This document shows positions 6,114-17,011 of a DNA stretch of 64,000 nt, piece after piece. Source of the DNA: Gemmatimonadota bacterium (lineage in GTDB: Bacteria > Gemmatimonadota > Gemmatimonadetes > Palauibacterales > Palauibacteraceae); contig JBDGXC010000002.1 of NCBI GenBank assembly GCA_039584815.1, forward strand, positions 89,508 to 153,507. Direction: 5' to 3'. A program made the translations under genes and the position numbers. Numbering within the stretch: the stretch's first letter is position 1; each line of letters opens with the position of its first letter. Under the pieces are notes generated by a model that was not told the origin of the DNA, made no database searches, and worked only from the letters and a program-made list of their open reading frames with translations.

Positions 6114-7232
6114 ATGACCGAATCCCCGAGCTGGTTCGTCGAGGAGCTCGAGAGGCGGGGCGTCTCGCGTCGCGAATTCGTGGGCTTCTGCGGGGTGATG
6201 GCTTCGGTCCTCGCTCTGCCGAGGACGCTGGGCGCGAGAATCGGACAGGCCATCGAGAGCAGCAACAAGCCGACCCTGGTCTGGCTGGAGTTCCAGGACT
6301 GTGCCGGCAATACAGAGTCGTTCCTCAGGGCCGGTCGACCGACGGTGGCCGATATCATCCTGGACACGTTGTCGGTCGACTATCACGAGACGATCATGGC
6401 GGCTGCAGGTCATCAGGCCGAGGAGAACCTGGCAACGGTGGTGGCTGAGAAGCCCGGAGAGTACCTCGCCGTCGTGGAGGGATCGATCCCGACGGGGGCG
6501 AACGGCGCCTATTGTACTGTTGGGGGCCGATCGGCGCTGCAGATGGCGACGGAAGTGTGCAGCGATGCGGCCGCCACCATCGCGATCGGTACGTGTGCCG
6601 CGTTTGGTGGCCTCCCGGCGGCGGCGCCGAATCCCACCGGGGCGCTCAGCGTTTCAGATGCGGTGCCTGGCCTTAGGAACCTCATCAATCTTCCGGCATG
6701 TCCGGCGAACGCCGACAACCTGGCCGCATTGATCGTCTACTACATAACCTTCGGCCGGTGGCCGCCACTGGATGTTTACCGCCGACCCCTGTTCGCGTAC
6801 GGGAAGGCCATCCACGACAACTGCGAGCGCAGAGCCCACTACGATGCCGGGCAATACGTGGAGAACTGGGGTGACGAGGGGCACCGCCTCGGGTACTGCC
6901 TCTACAAGATGGGCTGCAAGGGTCCCGTAACGTTCCAGAACTGCCCGAACGTCGGGTGGAACGAGGGCACGAACTGGCCTGTCGGCTGCGGCCACCCGTG
7001 CCTAGGGTGCGCCGAACCTGACTTCTGGGACAAGATGACGCCGTTCTATAGCCACATCGCAGGTGTGCCTGGTTTCGGAGTCCACGCGAGCGCGGACCGA
7101 GTGGGGCTGTGGCTCACCGCCGGCGTCGCAGCAGCGTACGCTGCGGGAGGACTGATCCAGTACGGCAGACGGCTCGCGCACGATAAGCCAGAGGCGGCCG
7201 CCGTGGAAGAAGAGAAGGGAGGTCTGTCATGA
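6114..7232 (+). CDS. hupS: [NiFe]-hydrogenase small subunit (membrane-bound uptake type, Tat-exported)
   Basis: GGAGG RBS. Twin-arginine motif SRREFVGF. FeS-cluster motifs GTCAAFGG, LPACPAN, HDNCERRAHYD, and CxxxxxxC..GCGHPCLGC. C-terminal TM anchor. Confidence 0.92.
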   Translation: MTESPSWFVEELERRGVSRREFVGFCGVMASVLALPRTLGARIGQAIESSNKPTLVWLEFQDCAGNTESFLRAGRPTVADIILDTLSVDYHETIMAAAGHQAEENLATVVAEKPGEYLAVVEGSIPTGANGAYCTVGGRSALQMATEVCSDAAATIAIGTCAAFGGLPAAAPNPTGALSVSDAVPGLRNLINLPACPANADNLAALIVYYITFGRWPPLDVYRRPLFAYGKAIHDNCERRAHYDAGQYVENWGDEGHRLGYCLYKMGCKGPVTFQNCPNVGWNEGTNWPVGCGHPCLGCAEPDFWDKMTPFYSHIAGVPGFGVHASADRVGLWLTAGVAAAYAAGGLIQYGRRLAHDKPEAAAVEEEKGGLS

Positions 7233-8935
7233 CCCACGTCGTTGTCGATCCGGTCACGCGCATCGAGGGCCACCTGCGGGTCGAAGCGGAGGTCGATGGC
7301 GGCGCAGTACAGGATGCCTGGTCCTCCTCCACGATGTTCCGAGGGGTCGAGATCATCCTCAGAGGCCGGGACCCGAGGGACGCATGGGCCTTCACCCAGC
7401 GGATCTGCGGCGTCTGCACGACAGTTCACTCAATCGCATCGATCCGCGCCGTGGAGAACGCCATCGGCGCCCGCCCGCCGGCGAACGCGCGGCTGCTGCG
7501 CAACCTGATCATGGCCGCACAGATGGTCCAGGACCATGTGGTCCACTTCTACCATCTGCACGCCCTGGATTGGGTGGACGTCGTCTCGGCGCTGTCGGCC
7601 GATCCTGGGGCGACGTCGCGGCTCGCTCAGTCCGTCTCGGACTGGCCGCTCTCCAGCGCGACCTACTTTAGCGGTGTGAGGGAACGGGTACAGCAGTTCG
7701 TCGAGCGTGGTCAACTCGGGCCCTTCGCGAACGCCTACTGGGGCCACCCGGCCTATCGCCTTCCCCCGGAGGCGAACCTGCTTGCCGTAGCGCATTACCT
7801 GGAGGCGCTCGACTGGCAGAGGGATTTCATCAAGATGCACGCGGTGCTGGGGGGAAAGAATCCACACTTGCAGAGCTTCCTGGTCGGAGGCATGGCTACG
7901 CCGGTCGATCCCGACAAGCAGGCTGCGATCAACGTGACCTCGATTTCCACCATGCGGAAGCTGATCCGGGAGGCGCGCGCTTTCGTCGCGAAGGTCTACA
8001 TCCCAGACCTTCTGGCGGTGGCGTCGTTCTACAAGGACTGGGCGGGCTACGGCGCCGGTGTCGGCGACTATCTGGCGTACGGCGAGTTTCCGGAGGGTGA
8101 CGATCCCAACTCTCCCCTCTTCCTCCCCACCGGCCTCATCCGGGACCGGGACCTGTCTGCCGTCGAGCCGATGGATCAGACGAAGATCACCGAGTACGTG
8201 ACCCACTCGTGGTACGAGTACTCGACCGGAGACGGCGAGGGGCTGCATCCGGCAAGTGGAGAGACGAATCCGACCTACACCGGACCGGAGCCGCCCTATG
8301 AGCGTCTGAATACCGACGGCAAGTACAGCTGGCTGAAGTCGCCACGGTATGACGGGCTACCGATGGAGGTCGGTCCACTGTCTCGCATGCTGGTGGCTTA
8401 CGGCTCGGGTCACGCGAGGGTGCAGGAGCTGGTCGGTTACGCCCTGGGAGAGCTGGGTGTCGGACCCGACGCCTTGTTCTCCACGCTTGGCCGAGTCGCG
8501 GCCCGCGGCATCGAGACGCTGGTCCTGGTGGAGAAGATGGAAGACTGGCTGGACGAGCTTGCCGACAACATGGGCCGCGGCCAGCTGGACATTCACGACA
8601 ACACGAAGTGGGATCCGTCCACGTGGCCCAGCGAATGCAGCGGCGCGGGCTTCCACGAAGCCCCTCGCGGTGCCCTCGGCCACTGGGTCCACATCGTGAA
8701 CGGCGAGATTGCCAGTTACCAGTGTGTGGTGCCTAGCACGTGGAACGCGGGACCGCGGGATGCCGCCGGACAGCGCGGACCGTATGAGGAAGCCCTGGTG
8801 GGCACCCCCGTGGCCGATCCCGAGCATCCCCTTGAGATCCTGCGAACCCTGCACTCCTTCGATCCCTGCATGGCGTGCGGTGTCCATGTCGTGGACCGCG
8901 CCGGTCACGAACTGGCAACCGTGAGGCTGCCATGA
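7229..8935 (+). CDS. hupL: [NiFe]-hydrogenase large subunit
   Basis: ATGA overlap with hupS. N-terminal RIEGH and RICGVCTTVHSIAS (L1 motif). C-terminal DPCMACGVHVVD (L2 motif), with a post-His tail consistent with HupD cleavage. Confidence 0.95.
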   Translation: MTHVVVDPVTRIEGHLRVEAEVDGGAVQDAWSSSTMFRGVEIILRGRDPRDAWAFTQRICGVCTTVHSIASIRAVENAIGARPPANARLLRNLIMAAQMVQDHVVHFYHLHALDWVDVVSALSADPGATSRLAQSVSDWPLSSATYFSGVRERVQQFVERGQLGPFANAYWGHPAYRLPPEANLLAVAHYLEALDWQRDFIKMHAVLGGKNPHLQSFLVGGMATPVDPDKQAAINVTSISTMRKLIREARAFVAKVYIPDLLAVASFYKDWAGYGAGVGDYLAYGEFPEGDDPNSPLFLPTGLIRDRDLSAVEPMDQTKITEYVTHSWYEYSTGDGEGLHPASGETNPTYTGPEPPYERLNTDGKYSWLKSPRYDGLPMEVGPLSRMLVAYGSGHARVQELVGYALGELGVGPDALFSTLGRVAARGIETLVLVEKMEDWLDELADNMGRGQLDIHDNTKWDPSTWPSECSGAGFHEAPRGALGHWVHIVNGEIASYQCVVPSTWNAGPRDAAGQRGPYEEALVGTPVADPEHPLEILRTLHSFDPCMACGVHVVDRAGHELATVRLP

Positions 8936-9651
8936 GCGAAGCGACGAGCATGACAGCGGAGCCAGCGCTCGTCAGGGTCTACGTCTGGGATCTGGTCGTC
9001 CGCCTCACCCACTGGCTCCTGGCCCTTTCCATTGTCGTCCTGGCCGTCACCGGGTTCTATATCGGGAACCCCTTCATCGTAGCTCCGGACCCCGCGGGAC
9101 AGACTTTCGTGATGGGTACGGTGCAGGCGATTCACTTCTACGCGGCGGCGGTCTTCAGTCTGTCCGAGCTTTCCAGGATCCTGTGGATGTTTCTGGGAAA
9201 AAGATACGCCCGTTGGAACGAGCTGATACCGACGAGCAGGCATCGGTGGAAACTGGCGTGGGAGTGGATGAAGTTCTACGTTCTCTTTCGCCCGGTCACC
9301 CCGAAGTTCGTGGGCCATAACCCGCTTGCGGGAATCACCTACGTCGTGGTCTATGCGGTCGGCCTCCTGACGGCGCTCACCGGTTACGCCATGTTCTCGG
9401 TATACGCCGGAGCGGGCTCGCCGATGCAGGTCTTCTCGGGCCTCCAGCCGGTCTTCGGCGGGCTCCAGACCGCTCGGTGGATCCATCACGTGTGCATGTG
9501 GGTGTTCGTGTTGTTCGTCATCCACCACGTGTCCTGTGCCCTTCTCGTCGCCCGGGCAGCCAAGAACGCCGCGATCGAGTCGATGTTCTCGGGCTACCGG
9601 TTCGTTCGGGCGGATGACCTGGAGGCGGAGGAGGTGGGAAGAGAAGGATGA
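8932..9651 (+). CDS. hupC: Ni/Fe-hydrogenase b-type cytochrome subunit
   Basis: ATGA overlap with hupL. About four TM helices with conserved His (LTHWLLALSIVVLAVTGFYIGNPF, IHHVCMWVFVLFVIHHV). HyaC/HupC family. Confidence 0.85.
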   Translation: MSEATSMTAEPALVRVYVWDLVVRLTHWLLALSIVVLAVTGFYIGNPFIVAPDPAGQTFVMGTVQAIHFYAAAVFSLSELSRILWMFLGKRYARWNELIPTSRHRWKLAWEWMKFYVLFRPVTPKFVGHNPLAGITYVVVYAVGLLTALTGYAMFSVYAGAGSPMQVFSGLQPVFGGLQTARWIHHVCMWVFVLFVIHHVSCALLVARAAKNAAIESMFSGYRFVRADDLEAEEVGREG

Positions 9652-10217
9652 AAGCGTCGGGCGACTCGGCCTCTCTCCTGGTTCTCGGACTGGGCAACGT
9701 CCTCTGTAGCGACGACGGTCTCGGCGTGGCGGCGGTGGATCTCCTGGTGGGGCGGTACCGGCTACCGGAAAGCGTGCGGGTTATTGACGGCGGGACGCTG
9801 GGTTTGAGTCTGCTCTCCTATATACGTTCCTGCGACGACGTGATCCTCGTAGACGCAATCAGCGACGAGGGCCCACCGGGCACCTTCATTCGACTGGAGG
9901 GGACCGACGTGGCGCCGGCGGTGCGGAACCGCCTCTCCTGTCATCAGATCGGGGTGGCCGATCTATTGAACGCGCTGGACCTCTTGGATGAGGAGCCGCG
10001 GTCACTCACGCTGCTGGGGCTGATCCCGAAGACGCTTGAGCTGGGCCTCGGCCTGTCACCTCCGGTCGAGAACCAGCTTCCCGTGCTGGTGGAGAAGATC
10101 GCGGACGAGGCATACTGCCTGGGCCACCAGCTCCTTCCTCATGCCGGAATGCTGAGCACTGAGCACCAGCACCCATCCCGGGGCTCGCGGCCATGCAGGA
10201 CGCGCTCTGGACCGTGA
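9648..10217 (+). CDS. hupD: hydrogenase maturation protease
   Basis: ATGA overlap. LVLGLGNVLCSDDGLGVAAVD matches the HyaD/HybD endopeptidase signature (GxGNxxxxDDGxG). Confidence 0.85.
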   Translation: MKASGDSASLLVLGLGNVLCSDDGLGVAAVDLLVGRYRLPESVRVIDGGTLGLSLLSYIRSCDDVILVDAISDEGPPGTFIRLEGTDVAPAVRNRLSCHQIGVADLLNALDLLDEEPRSLTLLGLIPKTLELGLGLSPPVENQLPVLVEKIADEAYCLGHQLLPHAGMLSTEHQHPSRGSRPCRTRSGP

Positions 10218-10639: not shown

Positions 10640-11122
10640 TTGTCTAACCGTCCCGGGGCCGCCCCCAACACCCGGCGAGAAACTGGTTCGCGTCAGGGCC
10701 GAATGCAAGGTGAAGGAACCGATCTCAGGTGGCTGCCGATCGCAGGGATGCTGATGCTCGGGCTGTGGGCCTGTGACTCTGGAGATCTGCCGCGGGACTA
10801 CCGCGTGCTGGAGGTACCAGGGGCGAGCCTGGCGTCACCGGAAGCCCGAACTCGAGGCCGAGGCCTGTTTCTGGAGCACTGCGCCATCTGCCACGGGGAG
10901 CGGGCAAATGGACGAGGTCGTCGCAGCAACCTGTCGGTGAAGGCGGCTGACTTTACCGATCCCAGGTGGCGCGGGCGAATGAGCCCGAGGCGGGTTTTCT
11001 TCTCCGTACGGGAAGGCGTCGGGGGAACGCCGATGCCAGCATGGAGATTCTTCACTACTGACCAGGTCTGGGATCTGGTTGCATACGTGCTCTCGGTGGC
11101 CGAGTTGGGGCCGGGGACTTGA
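10640..11122 (+). CDS. class I c-type cytochrome, probable lipoprotein
   Basis: Single CAICHG haem-binding motif. Distal GTPMPAW Met-ligand motif. N-terminal hydrophobic segment ending ..LGLWAC. The exact start is uncertain (10640, 10700 or 10730). Confidence 0.7.
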   Translation: MSNRPGAAPNTRRETGSRQGRMQGEGTDLRWLPIAGMLMLGLWACDSGDLPRDYRVLEVPGASLASPEARTRGRGLFLEHCAICHGERANGRGRRSNLSVKAADFTDPRWRGRMSPRRVFFSVREGVGGTPMPAWRFFTTDQVWDLVAYVLSVAELGPGT

Positions 11123-11131
11123 GAGAGTCCA

Positions 11132-11389
11132 GTGCATGAGCTCAGCATAGCGCTGGATGTCTGCCGCATCACCGAGGAGCACGTCGGGCCGGACGCCCTG
11201 GCACGCGTGACGGCCGTCGGACTGGACGTCGGAGATCGGGCGGGCATCGAGATCGACAACCTGGAGTTCTGCCTCGAGGCGCTGCTCGGGAGCCCCCCGT
11301 TCGGAAACGCGGCTCCGAGCATCCGGCGGCTGTCGGGAGACGAGCTGAGGGTGACTTACGTGGAGGTGGAGGACGATGGCAGTCCGTAG
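11132..11389 (+). CDS. hypA: HypA-like hydrogenase nickel-insertion protein, lacking the zinc-finger module
   Basis: N-terminal MHELSIALDV matches the HypA Ni-binding MHE motif. The C terminus (RVTYVEVEDDG) resembles the HypA terminal strand. Only 85 aa, and the CxxC..CxxC motifs are absent. Confidence 0.5.
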   Translation: MHELSIALDVCRITEEHVGPDALARVTAVGLDVGDRAGIEIDNLEFCLEALLGSPPFGNAAPSIRRLSGDELRVTYVEVEDDGSP

Positions 11390-12053
11390 GATCGACGTTC
11401 GCGAAAAGGTGATGGCGAAGAACGACGAGCTGGCCGCGCGGGTCAGACATCGCCTGCACGCCCACGGGGTACCCTCCCTGAACCTCGTGTCGTCGCCCGG
11501 ATCCGGGAAGACGAGCCTGCTCGAACGGACCCTCGACGCGCTCGGCGACACCCTGCGCATGGCCGTGGTGACCGGAGACGTGCAGACTCAGAACGACGCC
11601 GACCGTCTCGCCGTGCGTACCGACCGTCTCGTGCAGGCGGTGGTCACCGGGGGAGCGTGCCACATGGACGCCCGCCAGATAGCCACCGCGCTCGACAAGA
11701 TCGATCTCGGCGACACCGACCTCCTGTTCGTCGAGAACGTCGGGAACCTCGTGTGCCCGGCCTCGTGGGATCTGGGGGAGAACGCCAAAGTCGTGATCTT
11801 CTCGGTGACCGAGGGAGAGGACAAGCCGCTCAAGTATCCCCGCATGTTCGAGCGCTCGGACTACTGCGTGATCAACAAGATCGACCTGCTGCCCTACCTG
11901 CCGTTCGCGATGGATCGTGCCGTGGACTACGCACGCGAGGTGAATCCCGCTCTGCGGTTCTTCCACACGTCCGCCCTCACCGGCGAGGGGATGATGGAGT
12001 GGTACGACTTCCTTGCCGATCTGGCCTGTCGGGAGGCGGAGTCGCCGGCTTGA
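11376..12053 (+). CDS. hypB: hydrogenase nickel incorporation GTPase HypB
   Basis: RIDVREKVMAKND, P-loop SSPGSGKTSLLE, metal-site CH..C, and the NKIDL motif. Overlaps hypA by 14 nt. Confidence 0.9.
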   Translation: MAVRRIDVREKVMAKNDELAARVRHRLHAHGVPSLNLVSSPGSGKTSLLERTLDALGDTLRMAVVTGDVQTQNDADRLAVRTDRLVQAVVTGGACHMDARQIATALDKIDLGDTDLLFVENVGNLVCPASWDLGENAKVVIFSVTEGEDKPLKYPRMFERSDYCVINKIDLLPYLPFAMDRAVDYAREVNPALRFFHTSALTGEGMMEWYDFLADLACREAESPA

Positions 12054-14464
12054 GCCGGGAAGTCCCGCTCTCCCGGCGATCCGCTCCGGACTCGCACTCA
12101 TACTCCGAGGGGATCGAAGCACGTCGCCTTCTGGTGACGGGTGTTGTGCAAGGCGTCGGGTTTCGGCCCTTCGTGCACCGCCTCGCGGGTCGGCACGAAT
12201 TGTCGGGCTGGGTCCGCAACGAGTCCGGTCGAGTGTTCATCGAGGTGGAGGGCGCGGCGACCGCGCTCGACGCCTTCACGGAAGCCCTGCGGAGCGAGGC
12301 GCCCGTGCTCGCTCGCCTGGACGAGGTAACCGTGGAGCGGGTGACGGCTCGCGGTGCAGAGGGGTTTCGCGTTCTGGAGAGCCGGGTGTCCCCGGGACGT
12401 CTGCCGGTGTCTCCGGATGTGTCCGTCTGCGAGGCCTGCAGGTCGGAGCTGTTCACGCCCACCGACCGCCGATACCGTTATCCCTTCATCACGTGCACCG
12501 ACTGCGGACCCCGCTACACGGTGATCGAATCCATGCCGTACGATCGGGAGCGCACCAGCATGCGCGCCTTTCCCCAGTGTCCTGCGTGCGAGCGCGAGTA
12601 CGGCGACCCGGCGGAACGCCGCTTTCACTCGGAGACGAACAGCTGCCCCGAATGCGGGCCGCGGGTGTGGGTAGCGGGACCGGACGGCGTGCCGATCGCA
12701 TCTGGCGACGAAGCTCTCACAGTCGCCGCGCGCCACCTGGAGGTGGACGCCGTGCTGGCGATTCGCGGGCTGGGTGGATACCACCTGGCCTGCGATGCCA
12801 CGAGCGATGCCGCGGTGAGCCGGCTGCGGTCTCGCAAGACGCGCGAGGGGAAGCCCCTGGCCGTGATGACGTTCGACCTGGCGGGAGCTCGGAGTCTCGG
12901 TCACGTCGGCGAGGTGGAGGAGAAGGCGCTGCTGGATCCGGCGCACCCGATCGTCCTGCTCCGCCGGCGAGCCGACAGCGCTCTGGCTCCGTCGGTGTCT
13001 CCGGGTCTCGATACCGTGGGCGTGATGCTGGCGTACACGCCGCTTCATCTGCTGCTACTCGAGCGCGTCGGCCGCCCCCTCGTGATGACCAGCGGCAACG
13101 TCAGCGACCTTCCCATCTGCACGTCGAACCGGGAAGCCGAGCGGAAGCTGTCCGGCGTGGCGAGCGCCTTCCTGATGCACGACCGCGAGATCGTGTCACG
13201 GTATGATGACTCGGTGGTCCGCGTGATCAGGGGCGCCCCCGTGTTTCTCCGCCGTGCAAGGGGATACGCGCCGTTGCCGGTGCCCCTTCCGGTTCCCACA
13301 CCCGAGCCCCTGCTCGCTGTGGGACCTCACCTGAAGAACACGTTCACGCTGGCGGCCGGGACCAGCGCGTTCGTGAGCCAGCATGTAGGGGACCTGGAGA
13401 ACGTCGAGACGCTCGATCATTTCCGTGACTCCCTCGTGCGGTTCAAGGGCCTGTTCCGGATCGAGCCGGTGGTCGTGGCCCGCGATCGCCACCCCGGGTA
13501 CCTGTCCAGCAGAATCGCGGAAGAGCTGGGGCTGGCCAGGGTCGTGGACGTCCAGCATCACCACGCACACGTGGCGGCGGTAGCGGCCGAGCACGGGATC
13601 ACACAGCCAGTGGTGGGTGTGGCGTACGACGGGACCGGTTACGGCGACGACGGCCACACATGGGGCGCCGAGATCCTGGTCGCGGACCTGGCGAATTATC
13701 GTCGCGTGGCTCAGCTGCGATACGCGCCGATGCCGGGCGGCGACCTGGCGGCGCGGCGACCGTGGCGCGCCGCTGCGGGCTACCGTTCACTGGATCGCCA
13801 TCATGCCGATGCCTTCGCCGGGGCGCTCAGCGAAGTCCCGGAGAGCGAACTGAGCGTGGTAGAGGCGCAGATCGAACGACGGGTCAACGCACCGCTGGCC
13901 TCGTCCATGGGCCGGCTGTTCGATGCGGCCGCCGCCATCCTGGGGATCCGGGGCGTTGCCACGTACGAGGGCCAGGCGGCGATGGAGCTCGAAGCGCTGG
14001 CCTCCGTCTCCGTGGTGGAGGGCTCCGTCTTGCGTGGCGACCCGTCCGATCTGGTAACGCGACGGGACGCGGCGGCGGACCGCTTCCCGGTGCTCGAGTT
14101 TCCGTTCTCGGAGGCGTCGGGGGAGGTGTGGGTGATGGATCCCGTCCCCCTCCTCGTGGAGCTGGGGGGCCGCGCGACATCGGGCGAGCGGCCGGGTGAT
14201 TTGGCGGCTGCCTTCCACCTCGCGGTGGGCCGCACGACCATTGAGCTGACGCACCGGGCCTGCCGGCGCAGCGGCATCGACCGGGTGGTGCTGGGCGGAG
14301 GCGTCTTCCAGAACGCGCTCCTGTTGGCGATCGTGGAGGCTGGCCTTGTGGATCGCGGCTTGCAGGTGTTCGCGCCCGAGCGCCTCGGACCGAACGATGG
14401 AAGCATCAGCTACGGGCAGGCGGCGGTCGCGGCCGCTTGCCTGGCCGCCGAGCGGGGGAGGTGA
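12050..14464 (+). CDS. hypF: carbamoyltransferase HypF
   Basis: Acylphosphatase domain (VQGVGFRPFV). Two Zn fingers (CEAC..CTDCGPRY; CPAC..CPECGP). YrdC-like and Kae1-like domains. The probable start is a TTG overlapping the hypB stop (TTGA). The upstream part of the listed ORF (11657 onward) overlaps hypB in another frame and is not coding. Confidence 0.88.
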   Translation: MSREVPLSRRSAPDSHSYSEGIEARRLLVTGVVQGVGFRPFVHRLAGRHELSGWVRNESGRVFIEVEGAATALDAFTEALRSEAPVLARLDEVTVERVTARGAEGFRVLESRVSPGRLPVSPDVSVCEACRSELFTPTDRRYRYPFITCTDCGPRYTVIESMPYDRERTSMRAFPQCPACEREYGDPAERRFHSETNSCPECGPRVWVAGPDGVPIASGDEALTVAARHLEVDAVLAIRGLGGYHLACDATSDAAVSRLRSRKTREGKPLAVMTFDLAGARSLGHVGEVEEKALLDPAHPIVLLRRRADSALAPSVSPGLDTVGVMLAYTPLHLLLLERVGRPLVMTSGNVSDLPICTSNREAERKLSGVASAFLMHDREIVSRYDDSVVRVIRGAPVFLRRARGYAPLPVPLPVPTPEPLLAVGPHLKNTFTLAAGTSAFVSQHVGDLENVETLDHFRDSLVRFKGLFRIEPVVVARDRHPGYLSSRIAEELGLARVVDVQHHHAHVAAVAAEHGITQPVVGVAYDGTGYGDDGHTWGAEILVADLANYRRVAQLRYAPMPGGDLAARRPWRAAAGYRSLDRHHADAFAGALSEVPESELSVVEAQIERRVNAPLASSMGRLFDAAAAILGIRGVATYEGQAAMELEALASVSVVEGSVLRGDPSDLVTRRDAAADRFPVLEFPFSEASGEVWVMDPVPLLVELGGRATSGERPGDLAAAFHLAVGRTTIELTHRACRRSGIDRVVLGGGVFQNALLLAIVEAGLVDRGLQVFAPERLGPNDGSISYGQAAVAAACLAAERGR

Positions 14465-14469
14465 CTGCC

Positions 14470-14799
14470 ATGTGTCTCGGGATTCCGGGTAAGGTGACGG
14501 AGGTGTATCCGAACGAGGGCCTGGCCATGGGAATGGTCGACTTCGGCGGCGTGCGTCGCGAGGTTTGCCTGGCCTACGTGGCGGATGAGGTCGACGCGGG
14601 AGACTACGTGGTCGTACACGTCGGGTTCGCCATTTCCAGGGTGGATGAGGAAGAAGCCCGCCGCACGTTCCAGCTGCTCCAGGAGCTCGGGCAGACGGAC
14701 GAGCTCGACTGGATGCGAGAGATGGCCGAGCAGAGCCTCGCCGGCATGGACGACGCCGCGGACGCCAGGGAGGGCGAGAGCGCCGGGGGGACGGCATGA
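14470..14799 (+). CDS. hypC: hydrogenase assembly chaperone HypC/HupF
   Basis: [10 protein letters not shown] terminus (the Cys2 signature). Acidic C-terminal extension. Confidence 0.85.
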
Positions 14800-15908
14800 A
14801 GTATCTGAGCGAGTATCGGGATCCCCAGCTCGCCCGGACACTCGTCGACCGGATCCTCGCAACGGCCAGCCGGCCACGGGTGCTCATGGAGGTGTGCGGC
14901 GGACAGACGCACACGATCGTCCGGCAGGGGCTGCAAGAGCTGCTGCGGGACGCGGTGGAGATGATCCACGGGCCAGGCTGTCCGGTGTGCGTCACGCCAC
15001 TCGAGCAGATCGATCGCGCCCTGCACCTGGCGGCGCGTCCGGAGATCATCTTCACGTCGTTCGGCGACATGCTTCGGGTGCCCGGCAGCGATAGCGATCT
15101 CTTCCAGGTGCGAGCGGCGGGAGGAGACGTCCGCGTGGTGTACTCGCCCCTCGACGCCCTGGCCATCGCGAGGCGCAACCCGGATCGCGAAGTGGTGTTC
15201 TTCGCGGTCGGTTTCGAGACGACGGCGCCCGCCAACGCCATGGCCGTGTGGCAGGCGCGCGAGCTTGGAGTCGGCAATTTCAGCGTGCTCGTGTCTCATG
15301 TGACCGTTCCGCCAGCCATCGAAGCGATCCTCGATTCGCCGGACAACCGTGTAGAGGGCTTCCTGGCGGCGGGCCATGTGTGCACGGTCATGGGGTGGAG
15401 GGAATACGAGCCCCTGGCTGCGCGGTACGGCGTTCCGATCGTCGTCACCGGTTTCGAGCCGGTCGACATCCTCGAAGGGATCTACATGGCGGTGCGGCAG
15501 CTCGAGGAAGGCCGGGCCGAGGTGGAGAACCAGTACGCCCGATCGGTGCGCAGGGAAGGAAACGAGCCCGCGCAGGAGCTGGTGTCGCAGGTCTTTCGGC
15601 TGGTGGATCGGGCGTGGCGCGGAGTCGGCGAGATCCCGGCCAGCGGGCTCGGGTTGCGGGAGGAGTTCACCGCGTTCGACGCCGAGCGAAAGTTCGAGCT
15701 CCAGGACATTCGGGCCACGGAGCCGGAGGACTGCATGGCGGGAGCCGTCCTGCGCGGCCGGATCAAGCCCATCGAGTGTCCGGCGTTCGGCAGCGCGTGC
15801 ACTCCCGAGAGCCCGCTCGGAGCGCCGATGGTGTCATCCGAGGGCGCCTGCGCGGCCTATTACAACTACGCCCGCTTCCAGCTGAAACCGACGGGAGATC
15901 CGGCGTGA
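14796..15908 (+). CDS. hypD: hydrogenase formation protein HypD
   Basis: ATGA overlap. Motifs [13 protein letters not shown], and [11 protein letters not shown]. Confidence 0.9.
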
Positions 15909-17011
15909 CGGACGGCTCTGCCGGGGCACGACCCGGAGCGGCGAGTGAGGGAGTCGCCCGGATCGCCGCCGCGGGGCTGTCCTGCCCGGCGCCCGCCGGA
16001 CCGGCGAGCCGGGTGCTGCTGGGCCACGGCTCAGGCGGGAAGCTGAGCGCGGCTCTGCTCAGGGAACGGTTCCTTCCTCGCTTCGCGAACGACATCCTGT
16101 CGGCGCTCGGCGACGCCGCGATCGTGGACGTGCCGGGCAGCCAGGTCGCCGTGTCGACGGACACGTTCGTCGTCAGCCCGCTGGAGTTTCCCGGGGGTAA
16201 CATCGGGCACCTGGCGGTGCACGGCACGGTCAACGATCTGGCCATGATGGGAGCCTCGCCCCTGTGCCTGGCGGCCGGCTTCATCCTCGAGGAAGGCCTG
16301 CCGTTCGACGTTCTGGACCGGGTGCTCGACGCCATGGCCGACGCCAGCGCGGCCGCCGGCGTTCCCGTAGTCACCGGCGACACCAAGGTGGTGGAACGCG
16401 GCAAGGCGGACGGGATGTTCATCAACACGACAGGCATCGGCCGGCTCGAGGAGCAGTTTCGACCGGCTCCGGACCGGGCTCGCCCGGGGGACGCCGTGAT
16501 CATATCCGGACCCATAGGACGACACGGAATCGCGATCATGGCTGCGCGCGAGGATCTGCGGTTCGAGGTGGAATTGGAGAGCGACACCGCCAACCTCGTT
16601 CCCCTCGTGCGGCTTCTCCACGAAGCCTGTGGGGATTCCGTGCATTGCCTGCGCGATCCGACACGGGGCGGAGTCGCCAGCGCCCTGAACGAGATCGCGG
16701 CCGCCTCGGGAGTCGGAGTGGAACTGGAGGAAGAGGCGCTGCCCGTTCCGGTCCCGGTGCGCGCCGCCTGCGAGGTGCTCGGCCTCGATCCTCTCTACGT
16801 GGCAAACGAAGGCATCCTCGTAGCGATCGTCGATCCCGAGCTGGCCTTGGAGGCGGTGGCGGTCCTGCGGGACCATCCGGGCGGCGCCGGGGCGGCCCGG
16901 ATCGGATTCGTGAGCGGGGACCGTCCCGGGCTGGTATCGCTCCGGACCGGCCTCGGATCCCGTAGGGTCGTGGACATGCTTCCGGGCGATCAGTTGCCGC
17001 GCATCTGTTGA
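15905..17011 (+). CDS. hypE: hydrogenase expression/formation protein HypE
   Basis: GTGA overlap with hypD. AIR-synthase-like fold. The C-terminal ..PRIC Cys is the cyanation site. An alternative GTG at 16013 would give an N terminus of the E. coli type (LLGHGSGGK). Confidence 0.9.

Follow-up and report, generated by a model that had tools for sequence, protein, structure and literature searches.

Asparagine at the second proximal-cluster cysteine position of a Gemmatimonadota [NiFe] hydrogenase small subunit is an invariant, previously described signature of a very large lineage

A preliminary description of this locus had called an asparagine at the second proximal-cluster cysteine position unusual for a Tat-exported, cytochrome b-linked [NiFe] hydrogenase, but we found the residue to be invariant in its clade, Asn or Asp to be usual at the same site in neighboring lineages, and such a variant to be in print already, whatever subgroup label is applied to the enzyme. 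The Asn motif is an invariant, previously described signature of a very large lineage and as such is already known; the gene studied here, found in a 64,000-nt stretch of DNA (the whole of which we refer to as the window), is one more member of that lineage and not a genome-specific oddity. Judged by its genes, the uptake hydrogenase locus on the + strand of the window is complete, and it seems reasonably likely to us that the enzyme, taken as a whole, is a normal Asn/Asp-type, Tat-exported, cytochrome b-linked uptake hydrogenase that works by the mechanism preferred below.

The small-subunit gene (6114..7232, +) encodes a 372-aa protein of the Asn type (CxGN) with matches to PF01058, PF14720, TIGR00391 and solved structures in the PDB; its TIGR00391 score is 412 bits against an NCBIfam cut-off of 179.5, and its best PDB E-value in phmmer searches, obtained with group 1 enzymes, is 3e-94. 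Near the N terminus, the translation contains a Tat signal motif, SRREFV (residues 18-23; 6165..6182, +), which phmmer aligned with the Tat leader of D. vulgaris Miyazaki in the PDB ('rgvsrrdflkf'). At the other end lies a hydrophobic helix (approximately residues 328-349; 7095..7160, +), recognized by Kyte-Doolittle analysis with the top 19-residue window beginning at residue 330; it aligned with the tails of Hyd-1 and MBH in the same PDB searches and is likely to be the membrane anchor of the subunit.

In crystal structures, half of the four ligands of the proximal cluster come from a C-x-x-C pair (Cys17 and Cys20 in D. gigas numbering). The corresponding bases of the window, 6300-6320, read TGT GCC GGC AAT ACA GAG TCG and encode C63-A-G-N66-T-E-S, with LEFQDC as the context leading into the motif. 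A phmmer search of the PDB brought residues 51-113 into gap-free alignment with the small subunits of D. vulgaris Miyazaki, E. coli Hyd-1, A. vinosum and R. eutropha MBH, which sets 'lefqdCagNtesflra' over 'lhnaeCtgCsesvlra', 'slsfqeCtgCtesltra' and 'ihgleCtcCtesfirs'. Because this alignment to solved enzymes is ungapped, N66 (codon AAT; 6309..6311, +) occupies the Cys20 position, in agreement with the preliminary description, while Cys63 (6300..6302, +) is the equivalent of Cys17 and the first proximal ligand, invariant in all 120 of the closest protein clusters. A shifted alignment was considered and rejected, as there is no gap against any of the four solved enzymes and no register that brings a Cys or an Asp to the site. 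By alignment, the third and fourth proximal ligands, Cys161 in GTCA (6594..6596, +) and Cys196 in PACP (6699..6701, +), are kept, as had been stated. The distal-cluster ligands H234, C237, C262 and C268 (6813..6917, +), aligned to DvMF, Hyd-1 and A. vinosum, are invariant within the clade, and the medial-cluster ligands C277, C296 and C299 were located by alignment at 6942..7010 (+); the remaining 11 cluster ligands of the small subunit are all kept. Where enzymes with a [4Fe-4S] medial cluster have a Cys, the window protein has Pro289 (NWPV). The medial segment also encodes an extra, clade-specific cysteine, Cys292 (W-P-V-G-C-G-H-P-C), which lies four residues ahead of a medial ligand and is invariant in the window clade.

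The start of the large-subunit gene overlaps the small-subunit stop by 4 nt (ATGA). The large subunit (568 aa; 7229..8935, +; PF00374, 8.8e-234) retains its Ni-binding motifs, namely L1 (RICGVCTTVH), the histidine of GGKNPH, and L2 (DPCMACGVH), and its L1 and L2 regions, TQRICGVCTTVH and SFDPCMACGVH, agree with RxCGxCxxxH and DPCxxCxxH. The next genes encode a HyaC-type Ni/Fe-hydrogenase b-type cytochrome subunit (8932..9651, +; PF01292; TIGR02125, 159 bits against a cut-off of 121.5), a HyaD/HupD-type maturation endopeptidase (9648..10217, +; PF01750; TIGR00072, 137 bits), and a mono-haem c-type cytochrome (CAICH; 10640..11122, +; PF13442, PF00034) that has a lipobox-like leader and an uncertain start codon. 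The series continues on the + strand with a short hypA (11132-11389), hypB (11376-12053), hypF (about 12140-14464), hypC (about 14470-14799), hypD (14796-15908) and hypE (about 15905-17011), all recognized by Pfam except hypC, which was read from its translation. The Tat signal and domains, the L1 and L2 motifs, and the cytochrome b and endopeptidase genes are those of a group 1 membrane-bound periplasmic uptake enzyme, and with the SRREFV motif and the TIGR02125 match, the earlier characterization of a typical Tat-exported group 1 hydrogenase with a cytochrome b partner stands.

Upon inspection of the AAT codon, which had been flagged for a possible sequencing error, we found none. An identical protein, with the same codons at the site (TGTGCCGGCAAT), is encoded in four or more separate JGI metagenome assemblies, which differ by 1-2 nt across the whole gene. 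There is a vanishingly small chance that an error of sequencing or assembly, or a decaying pseudogene, lies behind Asn66: AAT is two base changes away from any Cys codon, the four independent assemblies have identical site codons, the reading frame is intact with the other ligands all in place, and the maturation operon is complete. No point in support of such an artefact was found. In addition, Asn is encoded in all 80 related loci among GTDB species representatives, which come from Gemmatimonadota, Acidobacteriota (Thermoanaerobaculia, Vicinamibacteria), Myxococcota, Planctomycetota and Binatia; this agreement and that of the four assemblies led us to reject a sequencing error. In the 79 of these loci that were read at the codon level, Asn is specified by AAC in 74 and by AAT in five, and this synonymous codon use with a constant amino acid is a signature of purifying selection. 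The residue is likewise Asn in 120 of the 120 closest protein clusters, at 73-100% identity. The asparagine is thus almost certainly a genuine family-wide trait.

Looking more widely, we took the best 150 hits of an exhaustive HMMER search against 50%-identity cluster representatives, of which 97 span all three retained proximal cysteines. Of those 97, 67 have Cys at the site, 18 Asn, eight Asp, two Pro and one Glu, with one gap, so that 27 have Asn, Asp or Glu. A neighbor-joining (NJ) tree placed the window clade among other Asn/Asp lineages and away from groups 1b (DvMF), 1d (Hyd-1) and 1e (A. vinosum), with at least two more Asn/Asp/Glu clades in other parts of the tree. Starting from a sister representative with CAGD (P0125), the search returned small subunits of Frankia, Parafrankia, Amycolatopsis and Actinomadura, all with WLEFQDCAGD[ST]E[AS] and, for Frankia and Parafrankia, with lengths of 391-419 aa; Asn and Asp are mixed among the 120 neighbors of this representative. 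A second search, from P0122, led to a Chloroflexota-dominated clade that includes Chloroflexota MAGs, in which CAGN is found in 109 of 119 members, CCGN in one, and a Tat-like motif in 116 of 119. PDB searches with two further representatives, P0219 and P0177, returned NiFeSe enzymes.

The substitution also has a published record. Among natural changes at 'proximal, position 2', Table 1 of Yonemoto et al. 2014 gives Cys-to-Asp for Geobacter metallireducens and Cys-to-Asn for Nostoc punctiforme HupS, 'each represented by multiple members' (PMC4070099). Mohammadi et al. 2017 described Asn in place of one proximal Cys in the Tat/cytochrome b HupS of Methylacidimicrobium, and reported the same Cys changed to Asn or Asp in group 1f of Roseiflexus, Geobacter and Frankia, and to Asn in group 2a (PMC5364354). 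The preliminary description had said beforehand that its view would fail if a HydDB subgroup carried this motif as standard, and this is essentially the case, with Asn or Asp at the position in group 1f (PMC5364354). Recent soil studies place the family among 'high-affinity' H2 oxidisers.

By sequence, N66 is the Cys-to-Asn/Asp change reported for group 1f, and the enzyme probably belongs to this 'oxygen-protecting' HydDB group. Across its mature core, the small subunit shares 60.7% identity with Parafrankia (1f), compared to 51.4% with DvMF (1b), 50.0% with A. vinosum (1e) and 44.8% with Hyd-1 (1d), making Parafrankia the closest of four subgroup anchors in a comparison whose named 1f sequences represent one lineage (Frankia-type). 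The group 1f enzymes (Geobacter Hya, Frankia synton-3 HupSL, and those of Roseiflexus and Acidobacterium capsulatum) resemble that of the window in their Tat-exported small subunit, and the Frankia type further shares Asn or Asp within a WLEFQDCAG[N/D]TE context, although Frankia and Geobacter have Asp at the site whereas the window clade has Asn. The locus of Parafrankia colletiae (L081) encodes a small subunit of 414 aa, a large subunit of 571 aa, a cytochrome b, a protease and HypA, and has in common with the window the gene order small subunit, large subunit, cytochrome b, protease. Its subunit sizes agree with those of the Frankia synton-3 enzyme, HupS of 410-420 aa and HupL of about 573 aa, which Berckx et al. 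2024 assigned to HydDB group 1f (PMC11879354). The large subunit, by comparison, is 58% identical to A. vinosum HynL, the 1e anchor, and 56% identical to Parafrankia HupL, the 1f anchor, and its best PDB match is A. vinosum 3MYR_B (744 bits); the NJ tree grouped the window with a Frankia superclade at a bootstrap of 51%, with a single named 1f anchor lineage included. Because the large subunit is nearly equidistant from the 1e and 1f anchors and the bootstrap is this low, the subgroup label is not secure.

Other subgroups fitted less well. Both A. vinosum HynSL of group 1e (3MYR) and the group 1d enzymes MBH and Hyd-1 are alike in overall architecture, but carry Cys at the site where the window has Asn. 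Group 1d, the O2-tolerant MBH type, also has the C-terminal anchor and cytochrome b of the window; its supernumerary cysteines, Cys19 and Cys120, are replaced by G65 and G166, both invariant in the clade, and we rejected this assignment. The large subunit scores 617 against a Hyd-1 equivalog cut-off of 1101, and the missing supernumerary cysteines together with sub-threshold NCBIfam equivalog scores argue against both 1d and 1c. Group 1e enzymes of the Isp type have isp1/isp2 along with hynSL, whereas the window has no isp genes, its motif is CAGN and not CTGC, and the gene next to the large subunit encodes a HyaC-type cytochrome b. From the cytosolic group 2a, the window enzyme differs in having both a Tat signal and a cytochrome b, and HucS, which has only the CxGN motif in common with it, gave an E-value of 3e-33 against 3e-94 for group 1. 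In a tblastn search of plasmids, the matches did not exceed 49% identity and were confined to 1b-, 1d- and 1e-like genes.

The preliminary description held that ligation of the proximal cluster is altered, and on this point we agree, since the substitution must change that cluster. From the residue, its conservation, its family context and the identity of its motif with that of HucS, we infer the type of the cluster and its consequences. In the periplasm, the large subunit would split H2, and the small subunit's three FeS clusters would relay the electrons to cytochrome b, from which they would enter the quinone pool. The cluster site closest to the active site has just three thiolates (C63, C161 and C196), with the conserved Asn66 as the fourth residue. 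Such a three-Cys site would hold a [3Fe-4S] cluster, and Asn66 would serve as a second-sphere hydrogen-bonding residue in the empty corner, as in HucS; the cluster would raise the proximal potential and bias the enzyme toward H2 oxidation. HucS of M. smegmatis (PDB 7UTD/7UUR), ACSGNTMSFLNA, aligned directly with the window segment DCAGNTESFLRA (CAGNTESFLRA), and the two small subunits have the CxGNTxSFL motif in common. In the 1.52 A cryo-EM map of Huc and by EPR, all three clusters, the proximal one included, are [3Fe-4S] (PMC10017518). Huc is the only structural precedent for a C-x-G-N site. It is otherwise distant from the window, as it has neither a Tat signal nor a cytochrome b partner nor the distal His (H234 here). 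Within the PDB, phmmer found no chain closer to the small subunit than approximately 50% identity. To our knowledge, no group 1f-type or Tat-exported Asn/Asp-type hydrogenase has been solved structurally or studied spectroscopically.

The main competing explanation, which we regard as possible but somewhat short of an even chance, is that the amide O or N of Asn66 acts as the fourth ligand of a [4Fe-4S] proximal cluster held by three Cys and one Asn, which would tune the potential or lability of the cluster and not remove an iron. The chief argument for it is the free interchange of Asn and Asp in related sequences. Amides seldom ligate FeS clusters, which counts against it. Carboxylate ligation has a precedent in the group 1h enzyme of C. 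necator (AH, 5AA5), where three Cys and one Asp ligate a [4Fe-4S] proximal cluster, a parallel that is drawn by description and not by sequence position (PMC11023054). For cyanobacterial HupS, with the same Asn, a review citing EPR work gives a [4Fe-4S] proximal cluster held by three Cys and one Asn (PMC6616624), the literature annotates the site in this way for groups 1f and 2a (PMC5364354, PMC4070099), and engineered Cys-to-Asn/Asp variants at natural-variant positions kept measurable activity (PMC4070099). Against this, the only high-resolution structure with C-x-G-N, that of Huc, contains [3Fe-4S], with EPR that lacks a [4Fe-4S]+ signal (PMC10017518). We gave more weight to the high-resolution structure, whose motif is identical, and for this reason, by analogy with Huc, we give a narrow preference to a [3Fe-4S] proximal cluster over an Asn-ligated [4Fe-4S] one.

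We consider it very improbable that another cysteine (C134, C149, or C64 in CCGN variants) provides the missing fourth thiolate and makes the site effectively all-Cys. This idea draws on the invariance of C134, C149 and C292 in the 120 closest clusters and on the occurrence of CCGN in 15 of the 80 loci and three of the 120 clusters. However, C134 is also found in canonical enzymes with four or six proximal cysteines (Hyd-1 'gmfCiss'), C149 is found in lineages that have Cys at position 66, and the window protein has A64, not C64. Returning to the [3Fe-4S] and Asn-ligated [4Fe-4S] clusters, O2 tolerance of the [4Fe-3S] type known from group 1d would not be expected with either. The link to O2 tolerance suggested in the preliminary description was not borne out: glycines (G65 and G166) replace the supernumerary cysteines, and the Asn-type Methylacidimicrobium enzyme was reported to be highly O2-sensitive (PMC5364354). 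That enzyme is the one Asn-type Tat/cytochrome b hydrogenase with physiology on record.

Comparison with other characterized systems shows how far these resemblances extend. Group 2a Huc (7UTD/7UUR/8DQV) and cyanobacterial HupS share the identical C-x-G-N-T-x-S-F-L proximal motif with the window, but at the position of the distal His, H234 in the window, cyanobacterial HupS carries Gln. Methylacidimicrobium HupS, from verrucomicrobial methanotrophs, is similar by description in its Tat signal, its cytochrome b and its Asn in place of one of four proximal cysteines, and was placed by its authors near groups 1d and 1b (PMC5364354). The group 1h/5 Hhy enzymes and C. necator AH likewise combine three Cys with a single carboxylate or amide residue at their proximal cluster, yet they have Asp, lack both a Tat signal and a cytochrome b, and are very distant from the window in the small subunit (E-value 1.8e-27).

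As a discovery, the asparagine carries little weight; its remaining value lies in setting hypotheses for a structurally uncharacterised lineage. The Asn/Asp-type family is very widespread, occurring in Acidobacteriota, Gemmatimonadota, Chloroflexota and Actinomycetota, and the match to the HucS motif predicts a [3Fe-4S] proximal cluster in these periplasmic enzymes too, a prediction that bears on how the potentials of an electron relay set catalytic bias. The window clade adds two features to those of group 1f: Cys292, which is invariant, and a conserved gene for a cytochrome c of the CxxCH type, lying no more than 0.9 kb from hupD in 58 of the 58 loci having both genes. A joint reading for the Gemmatimonadota/Acidobacteriota clade, which we hold to be unlikely, is that its FeS relay has been rewired, with a Huc-like [3Fe-4S] proximal cluster, a [4Fe-4S] medial cluster completed by Cys292 as a fourth thiolate, and the lipoprotein cytochrome c encoded downstream of hupD as a second periplasmic exit for electrons. 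If this were true, the clade would possess a periplasmic high-potential hydrogenase distinct from the characterised group 1 enzymes.

The two subunits of the window's Asn-type hydrogenase disagree in their nearest anchors. For the large subunit (7229-8935), the best solved match was the group 1e enzyme of A. vinosum (744 bits, 58% identity), with 56% identity to the Parafrankia group 1f protein, whereas the small subunit (6114-7232) is clearly closer to Parafrankia 1f (60.7%) than to A. vinosum 1e (50.0%). The window locus also differs from the Parafrankia 1f locus in gene content: a mono-haem c-type cytochrome gene (10640-11122, + strand; PF13442), encoding a CAICH motif and a lipobox-like LGLWAC leader, lies 3′ of hupD, and no cytochrome c gene was found in the Parafrankia locus. 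The textbook operon comprises small subunit, large subunit, cytochrome b and protease genes, without a dedicated cytochrome c. Just downstream of hupD in related loci (L001-L079), a CxxCH-bearing cytochrome c gene was found within 0.9 kb of hupD in all 58 loci having both genes, spanning several phyla.

Within the small subunit, a sub-lineage of 15 of the 80 loci (L067, L068 and 13 other GTDB loci) carries C-C-G-N in place of C-A-G-N, with one more cysteine, adjoining the first proximal ligand, which may alter ligation again. QDCCGN occurs in 3 of the 120 closest small-subunit clusters, and cluster representative P0211 also belongs to the C-C-G-N set. Three additional cysteines, Cys134, Cys149 and Cys292 (codons at 6513-6515, 6558-6560 and 6987-6989, all + strand), are invariant across these 120 clusters. 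Cys292 falls in the context W-P-V-G-C-G-H-P-C, with medial ligand C296 four residues later; outside the window clade, among full-length cluster representatives, it was seen only in P0256 and P0260, each of them with a further Cys in place of Pro289. Some small-subunit homologues are unusually long (P0153, P0322 and P0323, 809 aa; P0180, 808 aa), and Asn-type members with CSGN occur among them. The small-subunit part of P0153 forms the C-terminal third (residues 528-796), preceded by approximately 500 N-terminal residues without an assignment, while that of the Cys-type P0180 is N-terminal (residues 133-385).

In one related Thermoanaerobaculia locus, L035, a second small-subunit gene (L035:6157-7062, - strand), whose product has the canonical motif LHFQECTGCTES, lies divergently oriented directly beside the Asn-type operon, and thus both small-subunit types coexist in one genome. 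The window's hypA (11132-11389, + strand) encodes only 85 aa, with a Pfam match limited to positions 1-60 of 112; its product retains the N-terminal MHE Ni-binding start and lacks the CxxC...CxxC zinc site. This short form, which overlaps the start of hypB, is conserved in related Gemmatimonadota loci (L001, L006, L007, L031 and L063) at 60-78% identity.
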